Positions 3,384-20,000 of a stretch of DNA of 20,000 nucleotides are shown here, one piece after another. A program made the position numbers and the translations under genes. How positions within the stretch are numbered: position 1 is the first letter of the stretch; each line of letters begins with the position of its first letter. Source of the DNA: an uncultured virus (IMG/VR IMGVR_UViG_3300027986_000009). Its lineage: Duplodnaviria; Heunggongvirae; Uroviricota; Caudoviricetes. The notes below the pieces were generated by a model. That model was not told the origin of the DNA. It ran no database searches and was given only the letters and a program-made list of their open reading frames with translations. Location: the IMG/VR virus record IMGVR_UViG_3300027986_000009; one strand, 5' to 3'.

Positions 3384-3788
3384 TCACCCGAAATTGAGGC
3401 CGTAGGACGCGTAGTAGTTGGTCCCGTTGTAGTAGATGCTCACGATATCGACGGCCGCAGCGGCGGTCGAGAGCACGGGTGCCGCGCTGCCCACCCATTT
3501 CACGGTCGCAGGCCACGCCACAGTGCGCGTCCCGGTGCCGTCTTGGATCAGGCGCAAGACGAAGTTTCCTGGACCGTTGGGCGCCGTGAAGGTGAACGTG
3601 CAGTTGGCGGTGAGTGTGATTTTCTGCTTCTGCCCGGCGAGGAAGCTGATGGTCGCGGCGGCTCCGGAGTTACCGTTATCGAATTCGGCGTTGTAGGTCA
3701 CCGTCTTCGATCCGAGGATGTTGAAATTCTCGGCGTTCAGGTCGTTGATGAGACCGAAGAGGGCTTGGAAGAAGTTGGCGAGGGCCAT
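3384..3788 (-). CDS. Stand-alone phage fibre-type beta-sandwich domain protein; paralogue of the N-terminus of the 1-1132 gene
   Basis: Motif LRLIQDGTGTRTVAWPATVKW.G..APVLST....VDIVSIYYNGTNYY, typical of phage fibre C-terminal domains; roughly 55% identical by hand alignment to codons 1-132 of the 1-1132 gene. Confidence 0.75.
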   Translation of the reverse strand: MALANFFQALFGLINDLNAENFNILGSKTVTYNAEFDNGNSGAAATISFLAGQKQKITLTANCTFTFTAPNGPGNFVLRLIQDGTGTRTVAWPATVKWVGSAAPVLSTAAAAVDIVSIYYNGTNYYASYGLNFG

Positions 3789-3789
3789 C

Positions 3790-5349
<1,560 letters not shown>

Positions 5350-5865
5350 TTAGAACTGCTCGGTCACTTCGATTTGACAGCCGTGCTGCTGGATCACCAG
5401 CAGCGTCGAAGCGTCACCGAGCCCCACGGCGTTGAACTGCACTGGCGTGCCGACGGGAAAGATCACCGGCGCCGCGAGGTTGTAGTATTCGACGATGATC
5501 CCCCACGGCATCGAGGCGATCGACTCACCACCCGACGATGGGCAGAGCATCTGCGGGATCTGATAGTCAGTCGGCGTCGCGGCGCCACCATGACTCATGC
5601 TCATCGTGAAGAGATGGCCGTTGGTGGCGTCCGTGTTTGTCACGACGCCGGTGATGCGAACCGCAAGCTTACCGGTCAGTTTAGGCGTGATCGTGGCGCT
5701 GGCGATGATCTTGTTCGCTGCCGTCAGCGTGACGGGGGAGGCGCTCGCTTGCTCACCCCATGCGCTTGCCAGGAGGCCCCTGAGAGCTGCACCACCACCA
5801 CCATTGGGCAGGAAGAAGAGGGAGCGCCTGTCCGCGCCGGGCCCGATGGGGTAGCTGCCTTTCAA
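5350..5865 (-). CDS. Putative virion structural protein (beta-rich, ~171 aa)
   Basis: The ORF track starts at 5925, but TTG at 5865 follows a strong SD (GGAGAGGTG); its TAA directly abuts the collagen ATG. Confidence 0.65.
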   Translation of the reverse strand: MKGSYPIGPGADRRSLFFLPNGGGGAALRGLLASAWGEQASASPVTLTAANKIIASATITPKLTGKLAVRITGVVTNTDATNGHLFTMSMSHGGAATPTDYQIPQMLCPSSGGESIASMPWGIIVEYYNLAAPVIFPVGTPVQFNAVGLGDASTLLVIQQHGCQIEVTEQF

Positions 5866-5925: not shown

Positions 5926-5955
5926 CCTGACCGATTGACGATAGGTTACGCTGGC

Positions 5956-8900
5956 TTACGGTTTCCGTAGCTGAGCATTGACACGCGCCGGGTCGAAAAA
6001 CGCCAGATGGGCGCTCGCATCGTTCACGCCGTAGCTCGCCACCAAGCGTTCGCCGTCGCGCGCCAGGCCGGCGCAGAACTCAATCCCCACGTGCTGAAAG
6101 TAGAAGGGATCGCTGATGGCTTCGACGTGGAAGTCCTTGGTGAATTTGACGAATCGATGCAGGTACACGCGCTCGGGGCGCCAGGCGACCTCGTGGGTCA
6201 GGCAGAGCCAGCCGTCGTCGTGGGGAATGACTTGAGAGCCGCCGCGGAGGTCTTTGAGGCACACCGGTGCGGGCTGCCGCGAGAGTTCGGCCGTCTTCTC
6301 GCCGTCGTGGGCGATACGAATGGTGGGGTCACACAAGTAAATGAAATGTCTAGGCCATCCGACGATCGGCATCCAATTCTTTTCGGTCGGACCTCGGTCC
6401 CGGATGGGTGTGAGAGTTGAGATTTCGAAGTCCTCATCGAGATCGGCGATCACCATCTCGCAGTTGCCGTTGGGGTTGTCGGCCAGATCGCGCACGGTAG
6501 CGGAAATGATAAGCCCAAATTCTGGTGAGTGCCAGAGTCGGCAGTCCTCGAAGCCTTCGACGGGGAAGGAGCTGCGAGGCAAATCCGTCTTGTCCTTGAT
6601 GAGCGTGGATTTGACAACGTTCCACCGCTTGTCGAATTCGATGATGTAGTTTTTTGTCTTGATGATGTTTGAGTTGTCGACGGTCGGATACTGGCCCTCT
6701 CGCGTCACGGTGTAGTTGACGGTTCGAACGAGTACGAATCGATCGGTGATGCCGATACCGATCTCGGGCGCCGACACATACACCGACGGATTCATCGGAT
6801 GCCATCCATCCGTCGGCCTCCAGTCGATCTCCTGCGTCGTCGCCCCAAACAGCTCCGCCGCCGACTTGGCGTAATGCGTAAAATTCCTTCGAGCCTCTTC
6901 CCGTACTCCATCGTTGGCATGCGTCGTCAGCTTCGCGCACGCTCGGTACCCCATCTCTCGCCGCCGAGGCGTCGCGTAGAAGCCGGAGATGCTCATCCCC
7001 TTGTCGGCCACCCAGTCATAGCTCTCTCGATCGACGAAGAGGAAGTCGCCTGGGAAGGGAAGGCGCGCGAGCTCCTCGTCGAACATGAAAGCGATCTCGT
7101 TTTTCGCCCGATCGCGGAAGTAGCACGCCAGCTCCCGCAGCGATTCTCCGCGCGACGGCCGGAAGTTGTAGGCTTCGAGCGCAGCCAGCACGAATTCGGC
7201 GGTGTTACCGAGATCCTTGTGGCAGAGGCAGATGCCGTAGAGCGAGAAGTAGGTCTCCTCGTCCCAGCCGCCGATCTCAACCCGACGCTTGTACCAGGGG
7301 AGCGCTTCCGCGGGCCGGCCCGTCTCGCGGTAGGTCTGCGCGAGGTAGAACATCGAGCGCACGCTGTTGGGGTTCTTCGCGAGGTCTTCGCTCAGAAGCC
7401 GGATGTCGCGCTCAGCTTTGTTACCCTTCGAGCCACCGTCGTCGCGGTCTTCAATGACGAGAGTTCGAAGCTGTTCCGGAGGAGGCCCGTCGATCGATAC
7501 ATACTCGTGGGTCGGGGCCTCGTAGTGCGCCTTCGTCGAGCGAGCGAGCAGGCGCGTGTTCCACCAGGACCGGAAGGGCGTGCGCTGCTCGACGTTGTAG
7601 GATCCAGCGGTGAGCTGGGAGCGGTCGAAAGCGTTGCCCGTGAGCTCCATGTCGGCGTCGAGAAAGAGGACGTAGTCCCAGCCAGGAGCGGCGCGCGCGA
7701 AGGTGAGAGCGGCGTTGCGAGCCTGGGAGAAGTTCTGAAACTCCGTTTTGCAGAGGCGACCTGGGATGTTGTGCTCCTTGAAGAAGTTGGTGATGAGGTC
7801 GGGTGTGCCGTCGGTGCTGCCGGTGTCGGCAATGACCCACGTGTCAATGAAGGGGAGTGCGGCGGTGAGACAACGGAGGATGATTTTGGCCTCATTTTTC
7901 ACAATCATGTTGAGGCATACACGCGGCGCTCGTGGTGTGATAAGGGCTGCGTCTGATTTCAGCGCTTCTAGATATTTGCGCCTCATACATTCTGCCTTCT
8001 CGATGTAGATAATGCTGTCGTTGTGGTCGGCCTCGTACCAATCAAAGAGCGTCCCCGCCGCCTCCATCTGAGCCCACGTGTTGACCTCCCACGTCAGATG
8101 CTTCTGACGGCGGAAGGTGACGTGGTAGTCCTCGACGAGATCGGGGATGGAGCCGCGATCGGCGAGGAGGAAGCCGCCACAGAAGCGCCAATTGACACCG
8201 TCGTCGTTGGCGTGGTCGCCTTTCCTCCAGCAGCCCGGGGCGAGCACGCACTTCGGGGGTGGCGCCAGCGTCTTGAGCTTCGTGAGGAAGGCGGCGTGGT
8301 CTTTGACGATCTTGAGGATGCCGAAGTCGATCCAGGCGTAGTGGCTTGGAAAGTTTACGGGAGGGTGCTCGGCGTCATCTTTTGCGGCGGCGGCCAGGAG
8401 ATCGAGCTTCGCGTGCTGGAGGAGAAGGAAGTCTTTTGTGTCCTTCTGAGGATCTCGGTGCTCAGGTAGTCCTGCCGGATGGTGACGAAAAGGCCAAAGT
8501 TGGCCGAGTTGCCTCTCGATGACGTGAACGTTTGATGGGAAGTCAGGCACATCCTCAGCGAAGCCTTCGTCGGCGAAGAGGGTGATAGGCAAACCGCTCG
8601 CCGCGAGCTCGCGAAAGTTCTGAAGCAGCTCCTCTTCGTCCACCTTGCGGTCGCGCAGCCGAAAAAATGCCGTGACGAACGTCACCGACGGCTTGCTGAT
8701 CGGCAAGCTCACCGGAGCGATCCGTGACTCCGTGCGCCGCTGAGCCTCTCTATCCAACTGCGCCTTGCTCTTCTGCACCGCAAAAATCCAGTCATGCACC
8801 GCCTTCGGGTTCGCCTTCGTAATGATGCGCGTCAGCCCTGGCGCGGTGCTCCCAAAGAGGCCCGCTTCGTCGGCAAGGCGCATGACGTCATTTTCTGTGA

Positions 8901-9441: not shown

Positions 9442-10706
9442 GCGCGCTCCAAAATCATCAAGCCGTTGTTGTTCCGATACCGATCCGTCTCCCGCCACTC
9501 CGGATGCTTGGCGAGAAACCGGTCGACCGCGCCGATGAGGCCCGGCTCGCTGCCGTCTTCGCCGCGCATCCCGAAGGTCTCGGTATCGTGCATGAGGATG
9601 TACTGACGAACTTTCGATGCGTGCATCTCGAGCTCCTGGCTTAGCTGCGCGCAAGTGTGGAGCGTGTCGATGAAGAGCAGATCGGTTGGCTGGATCGTGA
9701 TCTCGAGATCGTTCGCCTGGTAGAAGCGCAGGTTGACGTCGACTTCGTTTGCAATTTTCAATAGGTCATCGCCGAAGCTTCGATTTGGATCGGGCCTTGG
9801 ATCGTAACAACGCATGTTGTCAGGTCGAGCATGCGCAAGAGCCCAACTGCTACGACCCACACCGAACTCGGTCACGTGGTCACACTGCGCAGCGTAGGCG
9901 CGCAGCGTAGGCAGGTGCTCGTTGATGTCGCTCGGCGTGTCACGAAGCTGGATGTACTTGCGTTCGAGTGCGTCCAATTTGTCACCTCTTGCGATGGCTT
10001 CCGCGGAGCGCCGACACATGTAGCCGAGATAGGAATCCCACACGGCGCGCTCGCCGGCAGCGATAGCTGCGAGCTCGGGAACGTGACGGCTGCTGACGCT
10101 CTCGGCATGCCACACGCGGAGGTCATCGACGATGACGCCACGGCAGCCTAGATGCGTGAGGAACTGCCAGATCCAGTCGTCGCCATGGTAGATACGGAGC
10201 TCGGAGGGGATGGGGAAACACGACTCGACATCGACGCGATCGAGAGCGAAGAAGACGCCGGCTGAGTGGCCGGGACCGTATGGCGGCGGCGGCGCGCTTT
10301 CGGGTAGAGATGGTAAGACTGCGGAAAATTTACCTCGATACTGAATACCTCTGCCGAAATAGAACTCGCTCGCTCTCTTGACGGATTCGAATCTTGAGTA
10401 GAGAGCGTTTCCCCATTCAGGGGACACGACCGCATCCGCGTTCGCGATGACGAGAATTTCGGCATCGCTCTCCAGGAAGCGCGTCGCAAGCTGATTCCAC
10501 GCCGGATTGACGTAGACGTTCTCGGGGTTGCGGATGACTTCGATCTTGTCCGCGAACTCTTCGAGCACGGCCTTACACTCGACGCTCGATCCGTTGTCGA
10601 CGACGACGACGTCGACGAGAGGGTCGAGAAAGGAGGCGAGGGCATCGCGAAGGAGCTCGGCGCCTTCTCTGAAACAGGGGGTGCCGAGCATGATTCGCTT
10701 GCTCAC
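9438..10706 (-). CDS. GT2 glycosyltransferase fused to a class I SAM methyltransferase (Methyltransf_24-like) (422 aa)
   Basis: N-terminal VVVVDNGS, NPAWN, IANAD, YHGDDW; C-terminal DINEHLPTL, VTEFGVG, DLLFIDTLHT, YILMHDT. Confidence 0.85.
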   Translation of the reverse strand: MSKRIMLGTPCFREGAELLRDALASFLDPLVDVVVVDNGSSVECKAVLEEFADKIEVIRNPENVYVNPAWNQLATRFLESDAEILVIANADAVVSPEWGNALYSRFESVKRASEFYFGRGIQYRGKFSAVLPSLPESAPPPPYGPGHSAGVFFALDRVDVESCFPIPSELRIYHGDDWIWQFLTHLGCRGVIVDDLRVWHAESVSSRHVPELAAIAAGERAVWDSYLGYMCRRSAEAIARGDKLDALERKYIQLRDTPSDINEHLPTLRAYAAQCDHVTEFGVGRSSWALAHARPDNMRCYDPRPDPNRSFGDDLLKIANEVDVNLRFYQANDLEITIQPTDLLFIDTLHTCAQLSQELEMHASKVRQYILMHDTETFGMRGEDGSEPGLIGAVDRFLAKHPEWRETDRYRNNNGLMILERA

Positions 10707-10927: not shown

Positions 10928-12450
10928 CGGCAAGCCTCCTCCGCGCGCACAAGCTCCTCACCGAGCGAACACACTCCCGCTTCCACCGACTTACGCATGA
11001 TGGCGCACGCCCTCCGCGCTACCGCCTTGTCGCCCGCCTCGAGCGCATGCGCGATGAGGTTCCGAAGTGGTTGCTCCGGCCGCTCGCGCACCAAAGTGTA
11101 GTTCGTGACCATCTCGGCGTAGTCGCCGACGTACCAATCGAAGAGCTCCGGCCGGCGGTAATAGACGATGGGGAAGAGCTGCTCGTCGGCGTGGCCGTAG
11201 CCTTCGCCGAGGCAGTCGCAAAACGCTTGCTCGATCTCGAGGCAAAACTGCCGCATGGCGTGAACGCTTCCGGTGAAGAAACCGGAGCACATCGAGCAGC
11301 CAGCCGCGCAGTGTTGGCACCCTCCTTCGCCGAAATGTGCGTGCCAGTTCTGCGCTCTCCCCTTGCTGATGTAGTCGATCCAGCACGTCGAGAATCCGTC
11401 GCGGTCCTGAGCAAGAGCGTTCTGGAAGTGCACCAGGTTCTTCCATCCCATGCGCTCGATGCAGACGTTGACCCACGCGAAATGGCTGGAGTCGAAAGCG
11501 TTTGCGTCGATCGCCAGTCGCAACATCGCGTATCGCGCCATACAGAAGAGGTAGTAGCTGGCGGTGTTGCGCGGATCGCGCGAGCAAGCCCCCTGACCAC
11601 CTCGGTTCTCGATGATGCGCTGGCGAGCTCCCGAGAGCGGAAACGATTCGAAGTCGTATGGGATGACGAGCGTTCGGTTGCGCAGATGCTCTGGCCGCAG
11701 GCTCCATACCTTCTCCTCGAGCTCCGGATCGCAGAAGACGACGAGGTTGTTCGGCATCGCCAGCGTCGCGCGCCCGTGAACGTCGAGGTAATGCGAGGGC
11801 GGCCGAGAGCGCAGCTCGGGCGTCGCGTCCGTCTTGCCGGTGAGGTCGAAGTACCCGGTGACGAGGGTCCAGTTGTCGTTGCTCTTCGACTTGGGGAGCC
11901 TGGACGGATCGCGACAAACGATGCCGGTCCCTGACCAGTGCCCGCACTCGGTAACGTCGGCCTTGAACCGGTCGGGGATCTGGGACCAGCAGTTGTCGCG
12001 CATCGGCTTGAAGTACCAGATGTCGTCGAGGACGATGAGACCGTCGTATTTCTGATCGAGGAGCCAGCGGACGAGGGAGAGTTCGCGGGTACCCTCGTGG
12101 GGGTCGACGTCGATCAGGATGAGCGAGGAGCTGAGGAGTAGGTTTCGACACTCCTCACTCATCTGACCGTCGAAGAGATCGACGAGGCGATAGAAGACGT
12201 TGGTTGACGGTCGCTCGATCACCTTGCGAACGACATCGAAGGAGTGCGTTTCTCGGCCACCATAGGTGAGCGCCAACGCCGAATCGCCCAAGTGTGTCCC
12301 TATGTCGATGATGTGTCCCCCAACCTGAGTCGAAAGGTAGGCGAGCAACCAGTAGTGCTCATTTTTTGCCTGAAACACTGCAGGATCGCTCGCCATCGGA
12401 GCGAGCTCGGACAGATCGATAGCGTCGATCGCAGTACGAGAGAGAATCAT
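10924..12450 (-). CDS. Class I SAM methyltransferase (Methyltransf_24-like) fused to an HtrL/WlaTC-like glycosyltransferase domain (508 aa)
   Basis: IIDIGTHLGDSA, LILIDVDPH, IVLDDI; then WTLVTGYFDL, HFAWVN, GFFTG, HADEQL. Confidence 0.8.
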   Translation of the reverse strand: MILSRTAIDAIDLSELAPMASDPAVFQAKNEHYWLLAYLSTQVGGHIIDIGTHLGDSALALTYGGRETHSFDVVRKVIERPSTNVFYRLVDLFDGQMSEECRNLLLSSSLILIDVDPHEGTRELSLVRWLLDQKYDGLIVLDDIWYFKPMRDNCWSQIPDRFKADVTECGHWSGTGIVCRDPSRLPKSKSNDNWTLVTGYFDLTGKTDATPELRSRPPSHYLDVHGRATLAMPNNLVVFCDPELEEKVWSLRPEHLRNRTLVIPYDFESFPLSGARQRIIENRGGQGACSRDPRNTASYYLFCMARYAMLRLAIDANAFDSSHFAWVNVCIERMGWKNLVHFQNALAQDRDGFSTCWIDYISKGRAQNWHAHFGEGGCQHCAAGCSMCSGFFTGSVHAMRQFCLEIEQAFCDCLGEGYGHADEQLFPIVYYRRPELFDWYVGDYAEMVTNYTLVRERPEQPLRNLIAHALEAGDKAVARRACAIMRKSVEAGVCSLGEELVRAEEACR

Positions 12451-12459
12451 CGAAGCTCC

Positions 12460-12939
12460 TCAGAGGCAGACGTAATTTGGGATCCCACACACGTGCTGCA
12501 ACCCGGCCGTCGTGCAATCCATGCACTTCTGCCCGTTCTTACCGCACGCGGTGGTCATGTTGCCGGCGTAGCAGACGCCGCGATCGTCGAGGCAGCCGAG
12601 GCAGAAGGTGATGGCGTCGGTGGGGATGGCGGCGTCTACGGAGGCTTCAGGGGCTGCCGCTTCGACTACGGAGGCTTCGGCAGTGGAAGTTTCGGTATTT
12701 GCAGCGTCAGCGGTGGAAGCTTCGGAAGATGCGTCAGTAACGCCCCCCTCGACGGCAGCCTCGGGAGCATCGGCTTCGACTGCTGCCGCTTCCGGTTTCG
12801 TTTCAGCGCGCGCGCCTGCCTCCCTTGTCGGCTCCTGCTCCGCGGCGATCTGGGGGCCGCTATCGATCTGAGGGAGGTCTTCACCTTGGAGGGATAGACC
12901 GCAGCCTGTGAGAGCGAACGTGAACGCAATGAGTTTCAT
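12460..12939 (-). CDS. Lipoprotein with an acidic Ala-rich linker and a Cys-rich C-terminal domain (159 aa)
   Basis: Lipobox MKLIAFTFALTG-C; EA/DA-rich linker; 8 Cys in the last ~48 aa (ACGKNGQKCMDC). Confidence 0.75.
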   Translation of the reverse strand: MKLIAFTFALTGCGLSLQGEDLPQIDSGPQIAAEQEPTREAGARAETKPEAAAVEADAPEAAVEGGVTDASSEASTADAANTETSTAEASVVEAAAPEASVDAAIPTDAITFCLGCLDDRGVCYAGNMTTACGKNGQKCMDCTTAGLQHVCGIPNYVCL

Positions 12940-13370
12940 CTTTTTCCTGCATGCTTGAGGGCGAGAAAGAACGCAGCCAAAAGGCCCACGGTGACTCCGG
13001 CGGTAACAGCGACGAGCTTCCAGTCGGTGGTGGTGGGGTAGTCGCTGCTGTAGACGGCAGCGTTGGGGTCGGGTGCGTTGAGTGAATCGGTGATCACTGC
13101 GCGCGCGCTGGTGTCGCCCGCTGGCTCGTAAAGCGTGATCCCGGGAATACAGAGACCCGTTACGAGAGTGCCGTTACGGTAGGTCCAAGTATGGCGGTCG
13201 ACTCTCGCGATATAGCCCTTCCCGGCGTAGTCGAGGGAGAACGTCTGACCGAAGGCGTAGTGGCTCACTTGGTGGAGCAAATCGATCGCCCACTGCGTCA
13301 GCGGAGGCGGGACCGTGCTCCGCATGATGCGGTATCCGGGAGGCGGCGGCGGGTTTTCGGGGCAGGTCAT
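12936..13370 (-). CDS. C-terminally membrane-anchored hypothetical protein (144 aa)
   Basis: Start reassigned to ATG 13370 (ATGA overlap); C-terminal hydrophobic helix LVAVTAGVTVGLLAAFFLAL followed by KHAGKR. Confidence 0.7.
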   Translation of the reverse strand: MTCPENPPPPPGYRIMRSTVPPPLTQWAIDLLHQVSHYAFGQTFSLDYAGKGYIARVDRHTWTYRNGTLVTGLCIPGITLYEPAGDTSARAVITDSLNAPDPNAAVYSSDYPTTTDWKLVAVTAGVTVGLLAAFFLALKHAGKR

Positions 13371-13549
13371 TGCCCAACCCATTTGAAAGACACCTCGACA
13401 TCGAGGGCGCGCCATAGGTCGTCTAGCGCGTGATGACCTATACCCATGTGAGACGGGCGTAGCTCGTCGATGACAACCTCTCCGTCGACCGAAACTGTCC
13501 ACGGTCCTTCACCGTCACCGTTGCGATCTTCGAACATAACTTTTTTCAT
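13367..13549 (-). CDS. Hypothetical protein (60 aa)
   Basis: GAGAGAG upstream of the ATG; ATGA coupling to the downstream gene. Confidence 0.6.
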   Translation of the reverse strand: MKKVMFEDRNGDGEGPWTVSVDGEVVIDELRPSHMGIGHHALDDLWRALDVEVSFKWVGQ

Positions 13550-13590
13550 GACTCTCTCGACGTAGCGCTGATTGCCTCAGCCGTCAACGG

Positions 13591-13989
13591 CTACGGCATC
13601 TTCTCCAGCCGCTTGACCATCTCCTCGTGGACCACTCCCGCCCGGCGCATCGCCTCCTGTTGAGGAGAATATGCGACCTGTCCGGCATAGTCGATTGCGT
13701 TACGCCATAGAATTTCTAGTGTAGCCTCCAAATCGTTGCCGGCTTCACGATTTTGCGCTGCCATCGCGACAACATCCGGATCGGTCACAAAGAGGGCGTA
13801 AGCGAGCGCTTCGCGGAAGGTGCGATCGGACTCTTCGAGCGAGACTTCGATGACGGAGGCTGGTTCGTTCTTCTGACGCATCATCTCTTGGAAACTATGG
13901 CACCGCGTTCCTGCCGAGTGTAGATGATGGCACAAGGAGCATGGTCCCCCCATACTTCCGTGCGTGCATTCGCAGATTTGAGAATTCAT
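13591..13989 (-). CDS. Hypothetical protein with an N-terminal Cys/His cluster (132 aa)
   Basis: GAAAGG SD before the ATG; CECTH...CSLCHH..H....CH. Confidence 0.6.
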   Translation of the reverse strand: MNSQICECTHGSMGGPCSLCHHLHSAGTRCHSFQEMMRQKNEPASVIEVSLEESDRTFREALAYALFVTDPDVVAMAAQNREAGNDLEATLEILWRNAIDYAGQVAYSPQQEAMRRAGVVHEEMVKRLEKMP

Positions 13990-13998
13990 TTCAGCCTT

Positions 13999-14526
13999 TC
14001 AATGCCATAGATTCGGTGTGGCGAGCGTCATCGCATTGCAAGTGTTCCCCATCGGCCAGCTCCCCGCCCTCACGTGCCCGTCCGGATCCCAGCACGTACA
14101 CGTCGAGGTACCGGCGCCATTGCAAACACCGCCGTAGCCGTCGGTGAGCGTGCATCCGGATCCGCAAGCGGTTGCTGCATCTGGCGGATTACAGTCCTGC
14201 CAGGTGCGGCCGAATCCGTTGTCGTGCGTCACGAGGGCGCAAGCGTCGACATCCGAAACACCGATCCCGGAGTCGAGCGCGGTCCCCGGAGGCGCCCCTT
14301 GGTCAACCAGCCGCGCAGAGTCAGGCCAAGGCGCAGACGAATCCCGAAGGCCGTCCGGTGTTGCGTCGGAGGCTAGCAAGCGATCGTGCTCGACATCAGT
14401 ATCACTAGTCTGACGTTCATCGCCTGCGGCTTGGATTGCTTGTGCATCGTAGGGTTCCGTGAGGGCGACACCGAAAGGGGCGCCACCGCAGCCTGCGAGG
14501 AGAAAGAGAAGCGGGGTGGGTCTCAT
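13999..14526 (-). CDS. Lipoprotein with an Asp/Ala/Ser-rich linker and a Cys-rich C-terminal domain (~175 aa)
   Basis: From ATG 14526: MRPTPLLFLLAG-C lipobox; C-terminal THDNGFGRTWQDC...CTCW. Alternative start GTG 14562. Confidence 0.7.
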   Translation of the reverse strand: MRPTPLLFLLAGCGGAPFGVALTEPYDAQAIQAAGDERQTSDTDVEHDRLLASDATPDGLRDSSAPWPDSARLVDQGAPPGTALDSGIGVSDVDACALVTHDNGFGRTWQDCNPPDAATACGSGCTLTDGYGGVCNGAGTSTCTCWDPDGHVRAGSWPMGNTCNAMTLATPNLWH

Positions 14527-14571
14527 GGGAGATTGGACGGGATGGGGGCGGCGGTTATTCACTCGCGCGCA

Positions 14572-14757
14572 TCATTGCGCCTCGATAAGTGCCTTGCGGC
14601 CGGAGGCGGTGAGAGAGAAGGTGGCACTCCGCGTATCGATCCACCCCTTCGCCTTCACGCGCTCCCACGCCTCCGTGTGAGCCTTCGTCGGGAAGAAAGC
14701 GAACGCCGGCCATCCGGCTCGCGCACCTTCGAGTACCCACCGCTCTAGCTCGGTCAT
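14572..14757 (-). CDS. Small winged-helix-like hypothetical protein (61 aa)
   Basis: GGAG SD before ATG 14757; MTELERWVLE...VKAKGWI.....FSLTASGRKAL. Confidence 0.6.
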   Translation of the reverse strand: MTELERWVLEGARAGWPAFAFFPTKAHTEAWERVKAKGWIDTRSATFSLTASGRKALIEAQ

Positions 14758-14783
14758 CTTGTCTCCGGTTGCGCGCACGGGGT

Positions 14784-15421: not shown

Positions 15422-16074
15422 TCGCCGCCCTTCTCGATGCGGAGCGCCCTTTCAAGGAAGTCCGTGTGGATGTTCCGTATCTCGCCACACAAGACGTGCA
15501 CCGCCGCATCCCGATACGCCTCAACTCTGCCCGCTCGGTGCGCCGCGTCGACGGCCTCCTTGACCGAGCCGACCTTGCGCCGGCAGCACTCGCACAGCTT
15601 CTCTTCCCCCTCGGCCTTCGCGGGCGCCCCTGACACTGCCGGCGTCTCAGCCCGATTGAGCGCGTCTGCGATGCGTTGCGCTACGTCTGCCGAGTCCAGG
15701 AGACCGCAGAGGGTCTCACCGTTGTAGAGCGTTCGTCCGAGCTTGCGCCCGACGCGCCACCGATTGAGCTCCTGCGCGACCTTCGCGGGCGCGCAGTGAT
15801 GCTCGAACCCTAGGCCGAGCCCCGGCTCCTTCGCCCGCATCGCATCCGCTTCGTAGGCAGCGTCCATTCCTGCCCGGAGCTTGCGTTGCTCCTCGTCCTG
15901 TAGAGCCTCGTGCGCCCGCACCTGCGCCTCGTCGAGCCGCATCGCATCCGCAATCTCCGCCCGGACCACGGCCCGCAGAGCCTCTAGAAACACCAGCGGG
16001 AGCTCTTGGCTCTCCGGTGCGCCCGCCAGCCGCAGCAACGCCTCGAACGCCTTGTCGCTCTTTTCGCCCATCAT
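15418..16074 (-). CDS. Hypothetical phage protein (218 aa)
   Basis: ATGA overlap with GGAG SD; WRVGRKLGRTLY...AQRIADALN segment typical of phage hypotheticals. Confidence 0.65.
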   Translation of the reverse strand: MMGEKSDKAFEALLRLAGAPESQELPLVFLEALRAVVRAEIADAMRLDEAQVRAHEALQDEEQRKLRAGMDAAYEADAMRAKEPGLGLGFEHHCAPAKVAQELNRWRVGRKLGRTLYNGETLCGLLDSADVAQRIADALNRAETPAVSGAPAKAEGEEKLCECCRRKVGSVKEAVDAAHRAGRVEAYRDAAVHVLCGEIRNIHTDFLERALRIEKGGE

Positions 16075-17678
16075 GCCACTCCAAAAAGTTGCTTCAAAAA
16101 ATAACTCTGTGGCTGCGCCATCGCCGCCTTCACCGATTCCTTCTCGAGAAAGCTCCGCAGATCATCGTCTCCGACGAGCTCCGAGACCGCATCCGGGATC
16201 TCGCTCGGGCTGTCCACGAACCGACACCCCGACTGAAAACGATCCCACCCTTCCCCTTTCTCGCTGACGACAGCCACGCCGCGAGCGATCAGCGGCAACG
16301 CCCTCACCGCTTCGAAGACGCCGCCTTCGGGACCGAAGTCATTGCCGCGGATGTTGAGCACGACCTTCGAGCGGGCGATGAGCTCTTCTCTTTTCACACC
16401 CCAGCATGCCTTTTCGTAGTGGACGCGCAACCCTTTCTGTTGGAGGGCGCCGAGAATTTCGCGGCGGCGTTGGGTGAGACCTCCGTAGAAAAGGACGTCG
16501 ATGTCTTTCGGAGTATCGATGAGAAGATCGGCAACCTCACCCTCTAGCCTCAAGGGCGCCAAGCCCTTGACGAACCCCAGCGGCAACGTCACCGCCGGCA
16601 ACCCAGCCGCCTTCAGGAGATGCGTCGTCACCTCCGCCCAGCTCCAGATCACGCTTGGCCGAAAGAGCTCGGCCTCCGACTTGATGAAGCGAATCCAATC
16701 AGGTGCGGGCTGCTCGCAGCAGAAAAAGATGCTGCCTTCTGGGATGTCGACGTCGGGTTGCGCGATGTGGGCGCCGAGGATGATATGGATCGGAGGTTCA
16801 CCTTTTGAACCCAGTGCAAGCGGCCCACTTGCGTTCCAGAACGTATTTTTTCGAGCGATCCACGCCTCGAAACCGATTTCTTTGAGTCCTTCGGCAAGCA
16901 TAGTCGTCACCGGCGCAAAGATATCAGCCACCTTGTCGTTGAACGCGACCGTCGTGATCACGAAACCTCGGCGCATCGCGGCGCGCCAGTTGCCTTCTAC
17001 GAGCGGACGCTGGCGTCGCTCGAGTTCCGAGAGCATCCACTCGGGCTCTTTGCAGAGTAAAGGCGGACCTTCGGGGAGGCGACGGCCGGCGGGGGCGCCT
17101 TCGAGCACGTATTGCGGACCCGAAAGTCGCACCTCATCGGGGTCAACCACGATCGCGTCAGCATGCAAGATCACGCATCCACACCCCAAATGTTTCACCT
17201 CACGAAAACGTCTGCCATTGACCTCGCGCGTTTTTTGCTCGCCGTCAAAAAGTTTCACGTCGTAGCTCAATCCCGCACACGCCAACTCATCCAAGCTCGC
17301 CCTTCGCTTGACGGCCTGGCGGACGCGCGCCCAATCAATCGCCTCGCTTGCCACCGGCACCATCAGACCGACAACATCGATCCTGTGTCGTACCCCATCC
17401 ACGAGCGCAAGCACATCCTCCACCCGAAAGTCCACGTTGCCGTCGATCCAGAGTACGGCATCGGGCTTCTTGTGAGGATGGCCGAGGTAGGCACCCAAAA
17501 GGGTCAGACCCGTCTTGGCCTCACGGCATTCGATGCCGTGCGTGCGCAGCATGAAAACGATTTCAGCGATGGCGCGCCCGAAGGAGGGCGGCGCGAGCTT
17601 CGAGGGGGTCCCGATGCAGATCGAAGAGATCGGGCGAGGGGGGAGGTATTCGGGGGTGGCGATTACGCTACCGGTCAC
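16071..17678 (-). CDS. Two-domain glycosyltransferase-like protein: degenerate GT-A-like N-terminus + GT-B (CgeB/Glyco_trans_1_2-like) C-terminus (535 aa)
   Basis: N-terminal ICIGTP, LWIDGNVDF, DVVG, IDWARV, LGCGCVIL; C-terminal DIDVLFYG..TQRR, REELIARSKVVLNI, FEAVRALPLIARGVAVVSE. GAGG SD before the GTG. Confidence 0.75.
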   Translation of the reverse strand: MTGSVIATPEYLPPRPISSICIGTPSKLAPPSFGRAIAEIVFMLRTHGIECREAKTGLTLLGAYLGHPHKKPDAVLWIDGNVDFRVEDVLALVDGVRHRIDVVGLMVPVASEAIDWARVRQAVKRRASLDELACAGLSYDVKLFDGEQKTREVNGRRFREVKHLGCGCVILHADAIVVDPDEVRLSGPQYVLEGAPAGRRLPEGPPLLCKEPEWMLSELERRQRPLVEGNWRAAMRRGFVITTVAFNDKVADIFAPVTTMLAEGLKEIGFEAWIARKNTFWNASGPLALGSKGEPPIHIILGAHIAQPDVDIPEGSIFFCCEQPAPDWIRFIKSEAELFRPSVIWSWAEVTTHLLKAAGLPAVTLPLGFVKGLAPLRLEGEVADLLIDTPKDIDVLFYGGLTQRRREILGALQQKGLRVHYEKACWGVKREELIARSKVVLNIRGNDFGPEGGVFEAVRALPLIARGVAVVSEKGEGWDRFQSGCRFVDSPSEIPDAVSELVGDDDLRSFLEKESVKAAMAQPQSYFLKQLFGVA

Positions 17679-17928
17679 GGGTCAACCTCGCAAGAATTTC
17701 TTTAGCTCTTGGACTCATCTTTTTCCTCAAGAGAGCCACTTTTCTTGTCCAAATACGGTAGGTTCCCTGATCGATACGGTTGGCACACACCTCTCGCATG
17801 ATCGGAGACTTGATTATGATTTCCGAGTTGTCGGGTAGCTCTATCTCGTAGCGAACTCGTTTCGGGGTAGGCAAAGGAAACCTGATCGCTGTGTCGGCGC
17901 TCTCCTGAGTAACTTTTTTACGTTTCAT
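17668..17928 (-). CDS. Basic hypothetical protein (86 aa), lower GC
   Basis: ATGA coupling with GAGG SD; Lys/Arg-rich. Confidence 0.55.
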   Translation of the reverse strand: MKRKKVTQESADTAIRFPLPTPKRVRYEIELPDNSEIIIKSPIMREVCANRIDQGTYRIWTRKVALLRKKMSPRAKEILARLTRDR

Positions 17929-18110
17929 TGAAACCTCGATCTCCTCTCGGCCCTTGCAGCCTCTTCAAGCTTCACCCACCAAGCGATCCGCCTCTTCTCG
18001 CACTTGGCGCAAAGAATATAGTGCCCATCCTCCGGATCCAAAGTGCAGACCATTGGATCGTCGATAGTGCCCGCGATCGGGCGCTTGCACCGATCGCAGG
18101 TGGCGCTCAC
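17925..18110 (-). CDS. Small zinc-finger-like protein (61 aa)
   Basis: CDRC...CAKC; overlap-coupled at both ends. Confidence 0.65.
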   Translation of the reverse strand: MSATCDRCKRPIAGTIDDPMVCTLDPEDGHYILCAKCEKRRIAWWVKLEEAARAERRSRFQ

Positions 18111-18349
18111 TTCAGCGCCCGCAGCGCTGCGCAGTAGGCTTGGATCGCTTTCTTGGCCTCCGTCTCAGTCAGACCGAGCGCTTCGTCGAGGACGTCGCCG
18201 AGCCCTTCCGCGTCGTCGAGCGCTTGGGCGAGCGCGTGAAGGTCGATAAGTGATTCGCGCATTACTCGGCGCGCAGACCTGAACTTGGATCTCTCTTGCT
18301 CGCTATCGTGAAGACTGCGACCGATAAGCCTGACTTTGGGGTGTTCCAT
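18107..18349 (-). CDS. Hypothetical protein (80 aa)
   Basis: Start reassigned to ATG 18349 after GAAAGGA SD; the upstream extension in the ORF track crosses the hairpin element. Confidence 0.65.
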   Translation of the reverse strand: MEHPKVRLIGRSLHDSEQERSKFRSARRVMRESLIDLHALAQALDDAEGLGDVLDEALGLTETEAKKAIQAYCAALRALK

Positions 18350-18477
18350 CTTGATCCTTTCGTCGAAGTGGCGCCCGTGAGGAGGTTTGCTCGACCGTAG
18401 CCGAGTAGTCGACATGCTCACGGGGGCCACTTCGACGCGGGAACCGAACGGACTGCGCTAACGATCCTCGGCTCCCG
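18347..18477 (-). promoter_or_regulatory. Structured 5'-UTR element, copy A (long hairpin abutting the RBS plus an adjacent upstream hairpin)
   Basis: Arms 18417-18437 and 18361-18381 pair at 20 of 21 positions; inner TCGAC/GTCGA stem; adjacent 10-bp stem 18468-18477/18438-18447 with one G-U on the minus strand; followed by AAAGG-ATC-AAG-ATG. Confidence 0.7.
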
Positions 18478-18548
18478 GTGGAAGGGACGTCTTTCCGCCC
18501 TGTCAGGCGGGCCGGCGCGAAAGGGGGTAAGCTACGGCCGCCGAAACT

Positions 18549-18716
18549 CTAGCTCTGCTCCTCTCTCGGAAAGTAACCGTTGGGTTTGACGTAGGGCGTT
18601 CGCTCCTCGTTCCAACGATGCCCGCATGCGCGGCAACGCTTGACGAGACGATCGAGCTTGACCGCGACAAGCTCGGGCGGACCGTGACACTCGGGACAGA
18701 GCTCGTCGGCGATCAC
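18549..18716 (-). CDS. Small zinc-ribbon protein (55 aa)
   Basis: GTG 18716 overlaps the upstream TGA; CPEC...CRACGHRW. Confidence 0.65.
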   Translation of the reverse strand: MIADELCPECHGPPELVAVKLDRLVKRCRACGHRWNEERTPYVKPNGYFPREEQS

Positions 18717-18919
18717 GTTCGCACCGTCTCGTAGCGAACGACGCGCCGCACAAGGCGCATCGGTTGGCCGCAGCACTCGAAAACGTACTCCGGTTCGTGA
18801 GACCACGAATAATCGCCGTGCGTTGCGCTGTAGTCGGAGCCGCATTCGTCGCAGTGAAGCAACGAGCCTTCTGGTGCCGTCTTGAGCTCGACGACCGTGA
18901 CGCGCTTTCGTTTGCTCAT
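18713..18919 (-). CDS. Small zinc-ribbon protein (68 aa)
   Basis: CDECG...CCGQPMRL; ATGA/GTGA coupling. Confidence 0.7.
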   Translation of the reverse strand: MSKRKRVTVVELKTAPEGSLLHCDECGSDYSATHGDYSWSHEPEYVFECCGQPMRLVRRVVRYETVRT

Positions 18920-19125
18920 GGCTTCCCCGTCAACTTGACGTAGTCCTCTAAGGACTTCGGCGCGAATACATCGAACATGCCCCGCTTCGCCCGCCTCTCG
19001 TCGGCCGCTCGGTTCTCCCGATCCAGCCTGGCGACAAGGCTCCTAGTGCTCTCGCGTTTCAGGCTTCTTTCGAGCTTGTCGTTGGCCTCTGCGAGGCGCG
19101 CGGTCACTTCATCCAAAGGCTTCAT
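18916..19125 (-). CDS. Hypothetical protein (69 aa)
   Basis: Start reassigned to ATG 19125 after GAAAGGG SD; helical and charged. Confidence 0.65.
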   Translation of the reverse strand: MKPLDEVTARLAEANDKLERSLKRESTRSLVARLDRENRAADERRAKRGMFDVFAPKSLEDYVKLTGKP

Positions 19126-19245
19126 CTTTTTTCCCTTTCGTCGCAATCGGCCCCCGAAAGCCGCTCGGGGCACTTGGGGGGAGAGCAGCCGAGCGCTTCT
19201 CTCGAGGGCCGATTGCGACGGCGCCCGTTGGACGGGGCGCTCGGC
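19123..19245 (-). promoter_or_regulatory. Structured 5'-UTR element, copy B
   Basis: Arms 19199-19220 and 19139-19160 form 22 bp (two G-U on the minus strand); inner CGCTCGG/CCGAGCG stem; adjacent hairpin 19221-19240; followed by AAAGG-GAAAA-AAG-ATG. Confidence 0.7.
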
Positions 19246-19252
19246 GCGTTAT

Positions 19253-20000
19253 TTATTCCTTCGCATCTTCAGCCGCGCACCTCCGGATGTCCTCGAGGGC
19301 GCGCTCGTTCGAGGCGAAGAAATACGGAGACCGCCCGGTCGACGCCCGGTAGATGGCGCGACCCGCGTACTCGGCGCCCCCGAGTTTCTCTTCGAGCTCG
19401 TAGCCTGCCTTCCCCGCAAGGTGGACAGCCCAGCCGGCTCGACAATGCGTGGTCTCGCAGGTGTGCCAGTTCGCCATATCGAGCACGCCCCCCCGGCCCT
19501 CGATGGCGGCCAGGATCTGGGCGTCCAGGCGCTCGACCACCGGCACCTCGGGGTGGTGTTGCCGGTACAGCGCCGCGTGCTCCTGGCGCGCTCGCCTCTT
19601 GCGCACGTACGGGGTCTCGGGATCGAGGTGGTCGGCGAGCGACGCGGGAGCGTTCCGCGCGTCGCGGAGGTACGCGCCGCCGAGGTTCGCGCCGCCGAGG
19701 TACGCGTCGCCGAGGTTCGCGCCGCCGAGGTTCACGCCGCCGAGGTTCGCGCCGCCGAGGTCCGCGCCGCCGAGGTCCGCGCCGCGAAGGTCCGCGCCGA
19801 GGAGGTACGCGCCGCCGAGGTACGCGTCGCCGAGGTTCGCGCCGCGAAGGTCCGCGCCGAGGAGGTACGCGCCGCCGAGGTTCGCGCCGCCGAGGTTCGC
19901 GCCGCCGAGGTCCGCGCCGCCGAGGTCCGCGCCGCGAAGGTCCGCGCCGAGGAGGTACGCGCCGCCGAGGTACGCGTCGCCGAGGGTCGCGCCGAGGAGG
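19253..20000 (-). CDS. Pentapeptide-repeat protein with a C-terminal [13 protein letters not shown] domain (5' end beyond the window)
   Basis: Frame open from the right edge: A[DNY]L[GRL][GD] repeats; the GTG 19735 start in the ORF track is internal to the repeat. Confidence 0.88.
19661..20000 (-). repeat. 15-bp tandem repeat (about 22 units visible) encoding pentapeptide repeats
   Basis: Consensus GCG NAC CTC GGC GGC with almost invariant synonymous sites and multi-unit higher-order duplications. Confidence 0.92.

Follow-up and report, generated by a model that had tools for sequence, protein, structure and literature searches.

Only in a few model coliphages have the repeated hairpins that lie between cistrons and organise early transcripts been studied in depth. 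In this study, we analysed two intercistronic hairpins, A and B, each standing directly before a start codon in a 20,000-nucleotide (nt) stretch of DNA from an uncultured member of the Caudoviricetes (IMG/VR record IMGVR_UViG_3300027986_000009), hereafter the window, together with the family of elements to which they belong. Three described systems come closest. In phage T7, a polycistronic early mRNA of ~7000 nt carries five RNase III sites, and hairpins left at 3′ ends are described as stabilising the RNA; in the same account the idealised Escherichia coli RNase III substrate measures 22 base pairs (bp), and target mismatches can confine cleavage to a single strand (PMC3867540). The PeSLs of T4-like phages are presented as composite cassettes that reach from stop to start codon, end in a Shine-Dalgarno (SD) sequence and flank ORFans in plastic early regions (PMC2839356; PMC4122927). 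In Cluster K mycobacteriophages, the motifs named SAS and ESAS place an SD-containing sequence directly 5′ of the start codons of a subset of non-structural genes, and about half of the SAS copies are reported to have an inverted repeat on their 5′ side, always in the same orientation (PMC3203893); their function was still given as open in 2025 (PMC12699233). By analogy, the T7 early signals would be the closest functional counterpart of the elements described here, and PeSLs together with SAS/ESAS the closest architectural ones.

Both loci of the window combine an upstream hairpin, a long hairpin and an extended SD. Positions are those of the window, stems are read on the minus strand, and counts for the window cover these 20 kb only:

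18476-18439, minus strand: upstream hairpin of cassette A (~15 pairs, -19.7 kcal/mol), separated by 1 nt from long hairpin A
18437-18361, minus strand: long hairpin A, a 12-bp stem, a C.C mismatch and 8 bp, with an apical 6-bp stem and UACG loop
18360-18347, minus strand: extended SD AAAGGA, spacer and ATG (18349-18347) of cassette A
19240-19221, minus strand: short upstream hairpin of cassette B, 6-bp GC stem and 8-nt loop, 0 nt from the long hairpin (131-nt fold)
19220-19139, minus strand: long hairpin B, 22 continuous outer pairs including 2 G.U, a 3-nt internal loop and a 7-bp inner stem
19138-19123, minus strand: extended SD AAAGGGA from the helix base, spacer and ATG (19125-19123) of cassette B

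Direct reading of the minus strand recovered both sequences quoted in the original prediction, and folding reproduced the inner stems and abutting upstream hairpins that it had described for A and B. Its statement that the motif ends at the SD is also correct, the helix foot standing in both hairpins three bases 5′ of the GG core in AAAGG. Hairpin A is followed by AAAGGATCAAG and then the ATG at 18349-18347, hairpin B by AAAGGGAAAAAAG and then the ATG at 19125-19123, with 11 and 13 bases, respectively, from helix end to ATG; the window contains just two occurrences of CGACGAAAGG, both on the minus strand at A and B. With outer stems of 21 bp (A) and 22 bp (B), the two are the strongest among the four inverted repeats of the whole window. 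The minimum free energy is -52.7 kcal/mol over a 101-nt stretch for A (z -6.86) and -60.1 kcal/mol over 106 nt for B (z -5.47), and none of 200 dinucleotide shuffles matched the fold in either case. A covariance model of the family, R1, scored A at 58.0 bits in sense against 31.3 in antisense, and B at 90.4 against 35.2. No cassette-like hairpin was found in the other intergenic gaps of the window at 13503-13590, 14563-14783 and 5926-5955. The motif had not been recognised as a known Rfam family, and the Rfam 15 scan agrees: no match was significant, even in a permissive scan of the 1-kb region, and nothing was better than E 0.33. The noise consisted of plant microRNA models (top score 23.1 bits against a threshold of 137) and Actino-pnp (19.6 bits against 47.7, on the opposite strand). 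ARAGORN found no tRNA.

The original prediction had named a search for homologues as a check, and that search returned five canonical copies, one diverged copy and one hybrid, with compensatory changes, in a single phage, G001; one chromosomal copy in a bacterial genome, G007; and an identical hairpin B in a second metagenome (contig X4). G001 is a 105.5-kb IMG/VR phage record with terminal repeats, found by scanning IMG/VR with the 3′ arm and SD of copy B, and its elements were located on the whole genome by a stem scan and R1:

11651-11739, 12425-12536, 13013-13076, 13638-13711 and 15744-15836, plus strand: canonical copies, 74-89 bits
20730-20848, plus strand: diverged copy, 25.8 bits
14347-14513, plus strand: hybrid copy, 20.4 bits

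All seven lie on the gene strand within 9.2 kb (11.6-20.8 kb) of an ORFan early region, and the 105 kb of G001 hold no further R1 match at E<1e-3 save a false match to a tRNA plus SD. CGACGAAAGG occurs three times in G001, all on one strand, with no occurrence on the other strand or in a reversed control. In the canonical copies a stop codon is followed, after 6-9 bases, by a short GC hairpin (arms GGCGAGCC/GGCUCGCC or a compensated variant), an abutting long hairpin, an SD and an ATG. The feet of the long hairpins read CGUCGAA on the 5′ side and UUCGACG on the 3′ side (once UUCGGCG, which makes a U.G pair); past the helix come AAAGGGGAA or AAGGAGG and, 13-15 bases beyond the helix, the ATG. 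AAAGGGGAA also stands 5′ of G001 start codons that have no hairpin, and the SD is thus the ordinary strong ribosome-binding site of this phage, not part of the fold. All copies in the window and G001 lie between stop and start codons and are co-oriented with the genes. From helix end to start codon there are 11-15 nt in the phage copies and 16 nt in G007, and from helix end to SD core a constant 2-3 nt in the phage copies. The two phages appear otherwise unrelated, as far as the 20 kb at hand can tell: nucleotide similarity between G001 and window positions 17000-20000 is confined to a single 36-nt stretch (G001 13685-13720, the 3′ arm and SD of copy 13638-13711), and the protein link is one weak tblastn match (30% identity over 84 amino acids (aa), E 6e-5).

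Using MAFFT, we aligned hairpins A and B with the five canonical copies of G001 and applied a 22-pair outer stem. The claim that pairing is kept despite differing stem sequences is borne out, 12 of the 22 pairs having changed on both sides, in compensation, across the seven copies. Standard pairs fill 96.6% of cells, against 78.2% with shuffled partners; none of 500 shuffles reached any of five covariation measures, and sliding the partner by 1-3 columns lowered pairing to 40-50%. When the arms are laid flush, 142 of 147 cells pair (134 Watson-Crick and 8 G.U), and the non-pairing cells are three A.C and two others. An arm fits its partner within the same copy at 20.3 of 21 positions, as opposed to 15.3 of 21 for the arms of other copies. 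The seven pairs of the foot, CGUCGAA/UUCGACG, are invariant or nearly so in all seven aligned copies, and the stem above them covaries, retaining a loose consensus (GGCCC..CGAG) that shows common descent with compensated change. Outer stems measure 21-26 bp, with single mismatches (one or two, at positions 9-20) in four of the seven copies and none in three; interiors are unalignable, the arms enclose 20-70 nt, and overall length ranges from 64 to 119 nt. Predicted duplex energies of the long hairpins run from -42 to -65 kcal/mol. Judged from these alignments, the hairpin structure is probably under selection.

This pattern also separates the cassette from its mycobacteriophage counterparts. 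ESAS is described with imperfect arms of 17 bp, 4-13 bp apart, and a sequence consensus, and its deviations do not support RNA pairing, for which reason the authors favoured DNA-binding sites (PMC3203893); the cassette has arms of 21-26 bp enclosing 20-70 nt, with clear compensatory change at 12 of 22 pairs. Identity with SAS was rejected on the motif itself, the 13-bp consensus GGGATAGGAGCCC (PMC3203893) differing from the CGACGAAAGG(G/A) found here. Two further candidate features of the fold were tried and set aside. A helix pairing the 5′ flank with the SD/start region and so closing the structure, considered as a general feature, rose above mononucleotide shuffles in only three of eight copies (z -4.2 in A, -2.3 in G2 and -1.7 in G3). 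GNRA loops on the short hairpins, considered as an RNA signature, were clean in two of six (GUGA and GCGA), with no energy difference between strands.

GC-rich stems directly 3′ of stop codons could act as transcription terminators or attenuators between transcription units, and some high-GC bacteria reportedly terminate without a U tract. For the present cassettes we regard this as highly improbable. No U run follows A or B, AAAGG coming after the long hairpin instead; the terminator scan called no site on the gene strand at either cassette, and its overall count of 15 does not exceed the 15.2 expected. The promoter scan gave two sites in the window, neither of them between hairpin and SD, an interval that in cassette B and the G001 copies leaves no room for a promoter, so that termination would silence the downstream blocks. 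Read-through is therefore expected, given the lack of both a U run and a minus-strand terminator call at the cassettes.

Our tentative preference, for which we would claim somewhat less than even confidence and which takes the T7 early region as its model, is that A and B are intercistronic RNA processing and stability cassettes cut by RNase III. We infer transcription across the cassette, its cleavage and the roles of its three parts as follows. The cassette would be carried on a polycistronic early mRNA, from the stop of one gene block to the start of the next, its parts being a short GC hairpin, a long hairpin (outer stem of 21-26 bp with a conserved base) and an extended SD at the stem foot. 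The double-strand-specific RNase III of the host would cut the long, nearly perfect duplex. The short upstream hairpin would be left as a 3′-end protector of the upstream message, and the downstream message would start a few bases before a free, strong ribosome-binding site. In this way the operon would be split into separately stable and separately translated segments. The SD is predicted to be unpaired in B and mostly open in the remaining copies, so the hairpin would not mask translation; in cassette A it is partly paired with the upstream UCCCUUCC in the predicted ensemble. No RNase III was found in the six frames of G001, and the host enzyme would thus have to act (the family control search matched in 8 of 14 control genomes); sigma-70 region 2 and T7-type RNA polymerase were likewise not found in six frames, the last of these in a search without a positive control. 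The copy in G007, which has neither an upstream cistron nor a short hairpin, fits the protector role as a single case. The original prediction had suggested a regulatory or RNase III-type element: what stands of it is a real, repeated, intercistronic hairpin that abuts the SD, with structural covariation and stems of 21-26 bp, in the size range of the idealised RNase III substrate.

In T7 as in the phages studied here, related hairpins are repeated between phage early cistrons and extend over about two helical turns; in T7 the host enzyme cuts and a 3′-end hairpin stabilises the upstream message (PMC3867540), as we propose here. Unlike the cassette, the T7 sites are single hairpins in which an internal loop forces a single-strand cut, whereas here the stem is nearly perfect and a separate short hairpin comes first. 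The conserved stem foot and the SD at this foot are further differences, and the cassette has no Rfam match and no evident sequence relation to the T7 sites, though no T7 sequence was compared.

Alternatively, as a passive insulator or decay barrier, never cleaved, the cassette would block 3′-5′ and 5′-3′ exonucleases, RNase E and Rho loading between cistrons, and would keep the SD single-stranded, making each block independent of its context. Intercistronic stabilising hairpins have precedents in the Rhodobacter puf operon and the malE-malF REP, and the features of the cassette suit such a role: in cassette B and the copies of G001, helices take up nearly all bases from stop to SD, the SD itself is predicted to be open, and the cassettes flank shuffled ORFan blocks. 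We nevertheless think it unlikely, as a perfect duplex of 21-26 bp would be hard to shield from RNase III, an enzyme present in most bacteria, and stability alone leaves unexplained both the stem base conserved between unrelated phages and the separate short hairpin.

Several points weigh against processing by RNase III. The first is strand. The original prediction had argued for the transcribed strand from G-U wobbles; the argument favours that strand in B, fails in A, whose outer stem has no G.U, and does not hold as a general rule. Folding energy shows no strand preference, the sense strand being the more stable in four of nine members and the antisense strand in five, and eight G.U against three A.C in the outer stems are weak strand evidence. 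It is thus the flanks, and not the helix, that indicate orientation, and pairing alone is compatible with a hairpin that acts at the DNA level. Second, RNase III is not known to require a conserved 7-bp stem base. Third, the family is rare, for pattern scans of IMG/VR, of JGI metagenomes and, among the matches listed, of GTDB genomes gave no other phage. In IMG/VR, the pattern GTCGAA-N48-78-TTCGACGAAAGG returned 31 loci, two of them in G001 with three true hairpins and the other 29 without a stem from the base, and the 3′ motif returned 26 loci, three in G001 and the remaining 23 with at most 12 pairs. The GTDB pattern gave at least 120 matches, and among those listed one was an unrelated 21-bp hairpin (Leifsonia) and the rest had at most 16 pairs; the 44 JGI metagenome loci had at most 13, and 29 loci with relatives of the pentapeptide-repeat protein of the window gave no R1 match at E<0.08. 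Fourth, an orthologous junction can do without the cassette. The gene behind the first copy of G001, G1, has orthologues in the IMG/VR phages G002 (63% identity) and G003: in G002 a different hairpin of ~17 bp lies upstream and ends at the ATG, in G003 the gene overlaps its upstream neighbour by ATGA (4 nt) with no hairpin, and nothing else is shared in the flanks.

As a separate observation on G002, a hairpin at 18774-18850 of contig C1 (minus strand) ends exactly at GAAAGGGG followed by GTG, and another (5935-6001) at the ATG of the orthologous gene. Placing a helix next to the start of translation may be more widespread among phages of this group.

The conserved base could also be the target of a dedicated, sequence-specific protein that would bind or cut the foot and SD, whether as a translational repressor or activator, as an antiterminator, or as a Cas6-like endoribonuclease acting at the helix foot. 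The near-invariance of the seven foot pairs in all seven copies, the 12 nt of base that are identical between G1 and the G007 copy, and the constant spacing of 2-3 nt from helix to SD core in the phage copies would all suit such a factor. We give it a slim chance, considering that the window and G001 share no candidate (their one tblastn match is weak), that none of 21 ORFs in the G001 early region has a family annotation, and that base conservation could also reflect common descent or gene conversion.

Possible signs of exchange come from two places. In X4, a contig from a mine metagenome, window positions 19137-19236 (hairpin B and its short hairpin) recur with 100% identity over 100 nt, and 7 of 97 positions differ in the gene adjoining the cassette. 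The cassette edge (19236) is where identity to the window sets in, and of the compared run sequence 98% continues unlike the window. In G001, the hybrid copy (14347-14513) shares 30 identical nt with copy 12425, covering the 3′ arm of the short hairpin and the 5′ arm of the long one, and then diverges, the remainder being an unrelated 25-bp hairpin, a 10-nt spacer, AAAGGGGA and an ATG. This looks like a crossover inside the cassette, and with the mosaic boundary at the cassette edge it suggests that the element appears to act as a recombination junction as well. PeSLs are described as crossover points, including inside the stem-loop (PMC2839356), which may be compared with the G001 hybrid and the X4 boundary. 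They carry a strong sigma-70-type promoter, an AT-rich upstream region and an effective terminator stem-loop (PMC2839356); the cassette is GC-rich, has no promoter-like sequence, has a stable stem with no U tract, and occurs in different phages.

From such evidence the element could be seen as acting primarily in DNA, as a recombination or mobile module like PeSLs, REPs or MITEs/PATEs, with the hairpin working as DNA, as single-stranded DNA or as shared homology and with any RNA effect secondary. This would be compatible with an RNA role. Besides the hybrid and the X4 boundary, it could account for a cassette common to phages with no other detectable similarity, for its variable presence at the orthologous junction and for the lack of strand bias in folding energy; the TnpB ORF of G001 and the repeated palindromes of G007 point the same way. 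Even so, we hold it to be distinctly unlikely. Copies are few and clustered, not dispersed; their interiors vary in length and sequence, unlike recent transposition products; no flanking direct repeats are evident in the flanks read; no Y1 transposase was present among the 82 G001 ORFs scanned; and the fixed register to stop codon and SD points to a function in expression. REP/BIME, ERIC and Correia elements, for comparison, are palindromes in transcribed intergenic DNA, able to stabilise the mRNA upstream of them or to be cleaved by RNases, and occur in tens to hundreds of near-identical dispersed copies, the MITE types with terminal repeats and target duplications. The G007 homologue, in a chromosome rich in repeated palindromes, resembles them in setting; the cassette copies differ in being few, clustered, unlike in their interiors and locked to a stop codon and SD. 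A MITE/REP-type repeat, an identity that the original prediction had itself listed as evidence against its reading, was rejected on these grounds: the window holds two copies and G001 seven elements within 9.2 kb, in place of many dispersed ones, interiors are unlike, and the flanks read, made up of the upstream hairpin and AAAGG, show no target duplication.

The bacterial homologue came from running R1 on five GTDB genomes picked through chance pattern matches. In G007, a metagenome-assembled genome of the Gemmataceae, R1 matched with 42.9 bits (E 7.5e-10). The stem is a perfect 26 bp, its first 12 bases identical to those of G1, and behind the hairpin come CAGGAAAGGAACAAUC and the start codon, ATG, of a BBP7 porin gene (Pfam E 1e-53). 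It lies at 3860-3957 of contig C96, an ordinary chromosomal contig, in a divergent intergenic region, within a 5′ leader that has neither a short hairpin nor a cistron upstream. A 10-base piece of the 5′ flank of this hairpin, CCCTCGTCAG, is found again 5′ of G001 copy 15744, in which the short hairpin is inserted between this flank and the long stem. Across 151 genomes of the same family, R1 matched in 8 at E<=1e-3; seven of these matches proved to be long GC palindromes of a generic kind whose stem bases differ, and the G007 copy is alone among the eight in having the family base, SD and ATG. G007 is itself palindrome-rich, with 61 hairpins of at least 18 bp in the 428 kb sampled and several families of repeated nested palindromes. 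The pattern CGTCGAA-N40-100-TTCGACG, also tried in this family, was uninformative, with thousands of non-hairpin matches that probably result from codon usage. A 681-aa ORF from the structural region of G001 had no match in 252 genomes of the family in a stricter first look, so that the host link rests on one locus; a Planctomycete host is a possible lead from sequence, and not a finding.

The gene context of the window is phage-like, with all genes on the minus strand, among them collagen-like tail fibre proteins, glycosyltransferases and a pentapeptide-repeat protein. The suggestion that each hairpin heads a block of coupled genes was confirmed, downstream stops and starts overlapping by 4 or 11 nt behind both hairpins:

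19125-18549, minus strand: gene block B, three small ORFs of 69, 68 and 55 aa with 4-nt stop/start overlaps
18548-18477, minus strand: non-coding interval from the TAG that closes block B to the upstream hairpin of cassette A, without tRNA or Rfam match
18349 to at least 15418, minus strand: gene block A, ORFs of 80, 61, 86, 535 and 218 aa with overlaps of 4, 4, 11 and 4 nt

The last two ORFs of block B contain Cys pairs resembling zinc ribbons (zinc-ribbon matches weak and below cut-off). In block A, none of the five ORFs has a PHROG family, and the sole Pfam match is a sub-threshold, glycosyltransferase-like one in the 535-aa ORF (19.2 bits against a cut-off of 25), a protein with no relative in IMG/VR or cultured phages. 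DNA of window positions 17000-20000 has no match among cultured phages. Matches in public runs place the window in a soil metagenome, and no RNA run is among the listed public holders of its sequence.

Directly upstream of cassette B, at 19999-19253 on the minus strand, is the pentapeptide-repeat protein gene (phrog_31265, E 2e-54), 12 nt past whose TAA the short hairpin of the cassette begins; the repeat part of the protein matched thousands of metagenomic contigs in lake and freshwater runs. The segment 18430-18545 (minus strand), which covers most of the non-coding interval ahead of hairpin A, is ~95% identical (5 differences, 3 gaps) to part of a 173-nt lake-metagenome contig, whose other 51 nt do not match hairpin A. 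The segment is also covered by a freshwater run and is better conserved than the flanking genes, its fold being ordinary (z -1.0); it could be a promoter/operator or small RNA module.

G001 is a temperate-type phage, with an integrase, TnpB, DNA polymerase A, a primase-polymerase and helicases. Its cassettes lie just past the integrase side, in a region where a PHROG family was assigned to none of 21 ORFs. The TnpB ORF (3731-5668, 645 aa) combines OrfB_IS605 and Cas12f1-like TNB domains and stands beside lysis and methylase genes. In the ~1.3 kb of non-coding sequence that separates the integrase side from the first cassette, positions 10155-10433 hold ~280 nt of overlapping long inverted repeats on both strands, with stems of 19-28 pairs, which may be an early control region or origin. 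The DNA polymerase finds its cultured-phage relatives at only ~24-26% identity and in phages of many hosts, giving no host clue, and the relative search with a 347-aa ORF returned that ORF alone.

Repeated intercistronic hairpin signals are already known; what is unusual here is the split design, and its known distribution is very narrow. Within the search made, which left most of the older phage literature outside, no paper was found that describes such a cassette in its title or abstract. The cassette is a well-supported structure whose function we infer. A wider model, which we advance with considerable doubt, would make it a portable stop-to-start module of GC-rich phages, composed of a protector hairpin, a nuclease-target duplex with a specific foot and an extended SD. 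Such a module would be exchanged by unrelated phages, would have come to stand on at least one Planctomycete chromosomal gene and would mark the junctions at which ORFan blocks are swapped; it would be an RNA-processing counterpart of PeSLs, possibly read by a dedicated factor that recognises CGUCGAA/UUCGACG. For the study of phage early operons, the cassette would add an example from GC-rich soil phages that are uncultivated and may be linked to Planctomycetes. If our reading is right, its architecture would keep the protecting hairpin separate from the duplex that is cut, and would give designers of operons for GC-rich hosts a small natural part for insulation and processing. It could then serve as a marker of early-operon boundaries in metagenomic phage genomes and as a possible clue to their hosts, and would allow one to test whether cassettes of this type also serve as recombination linkers.

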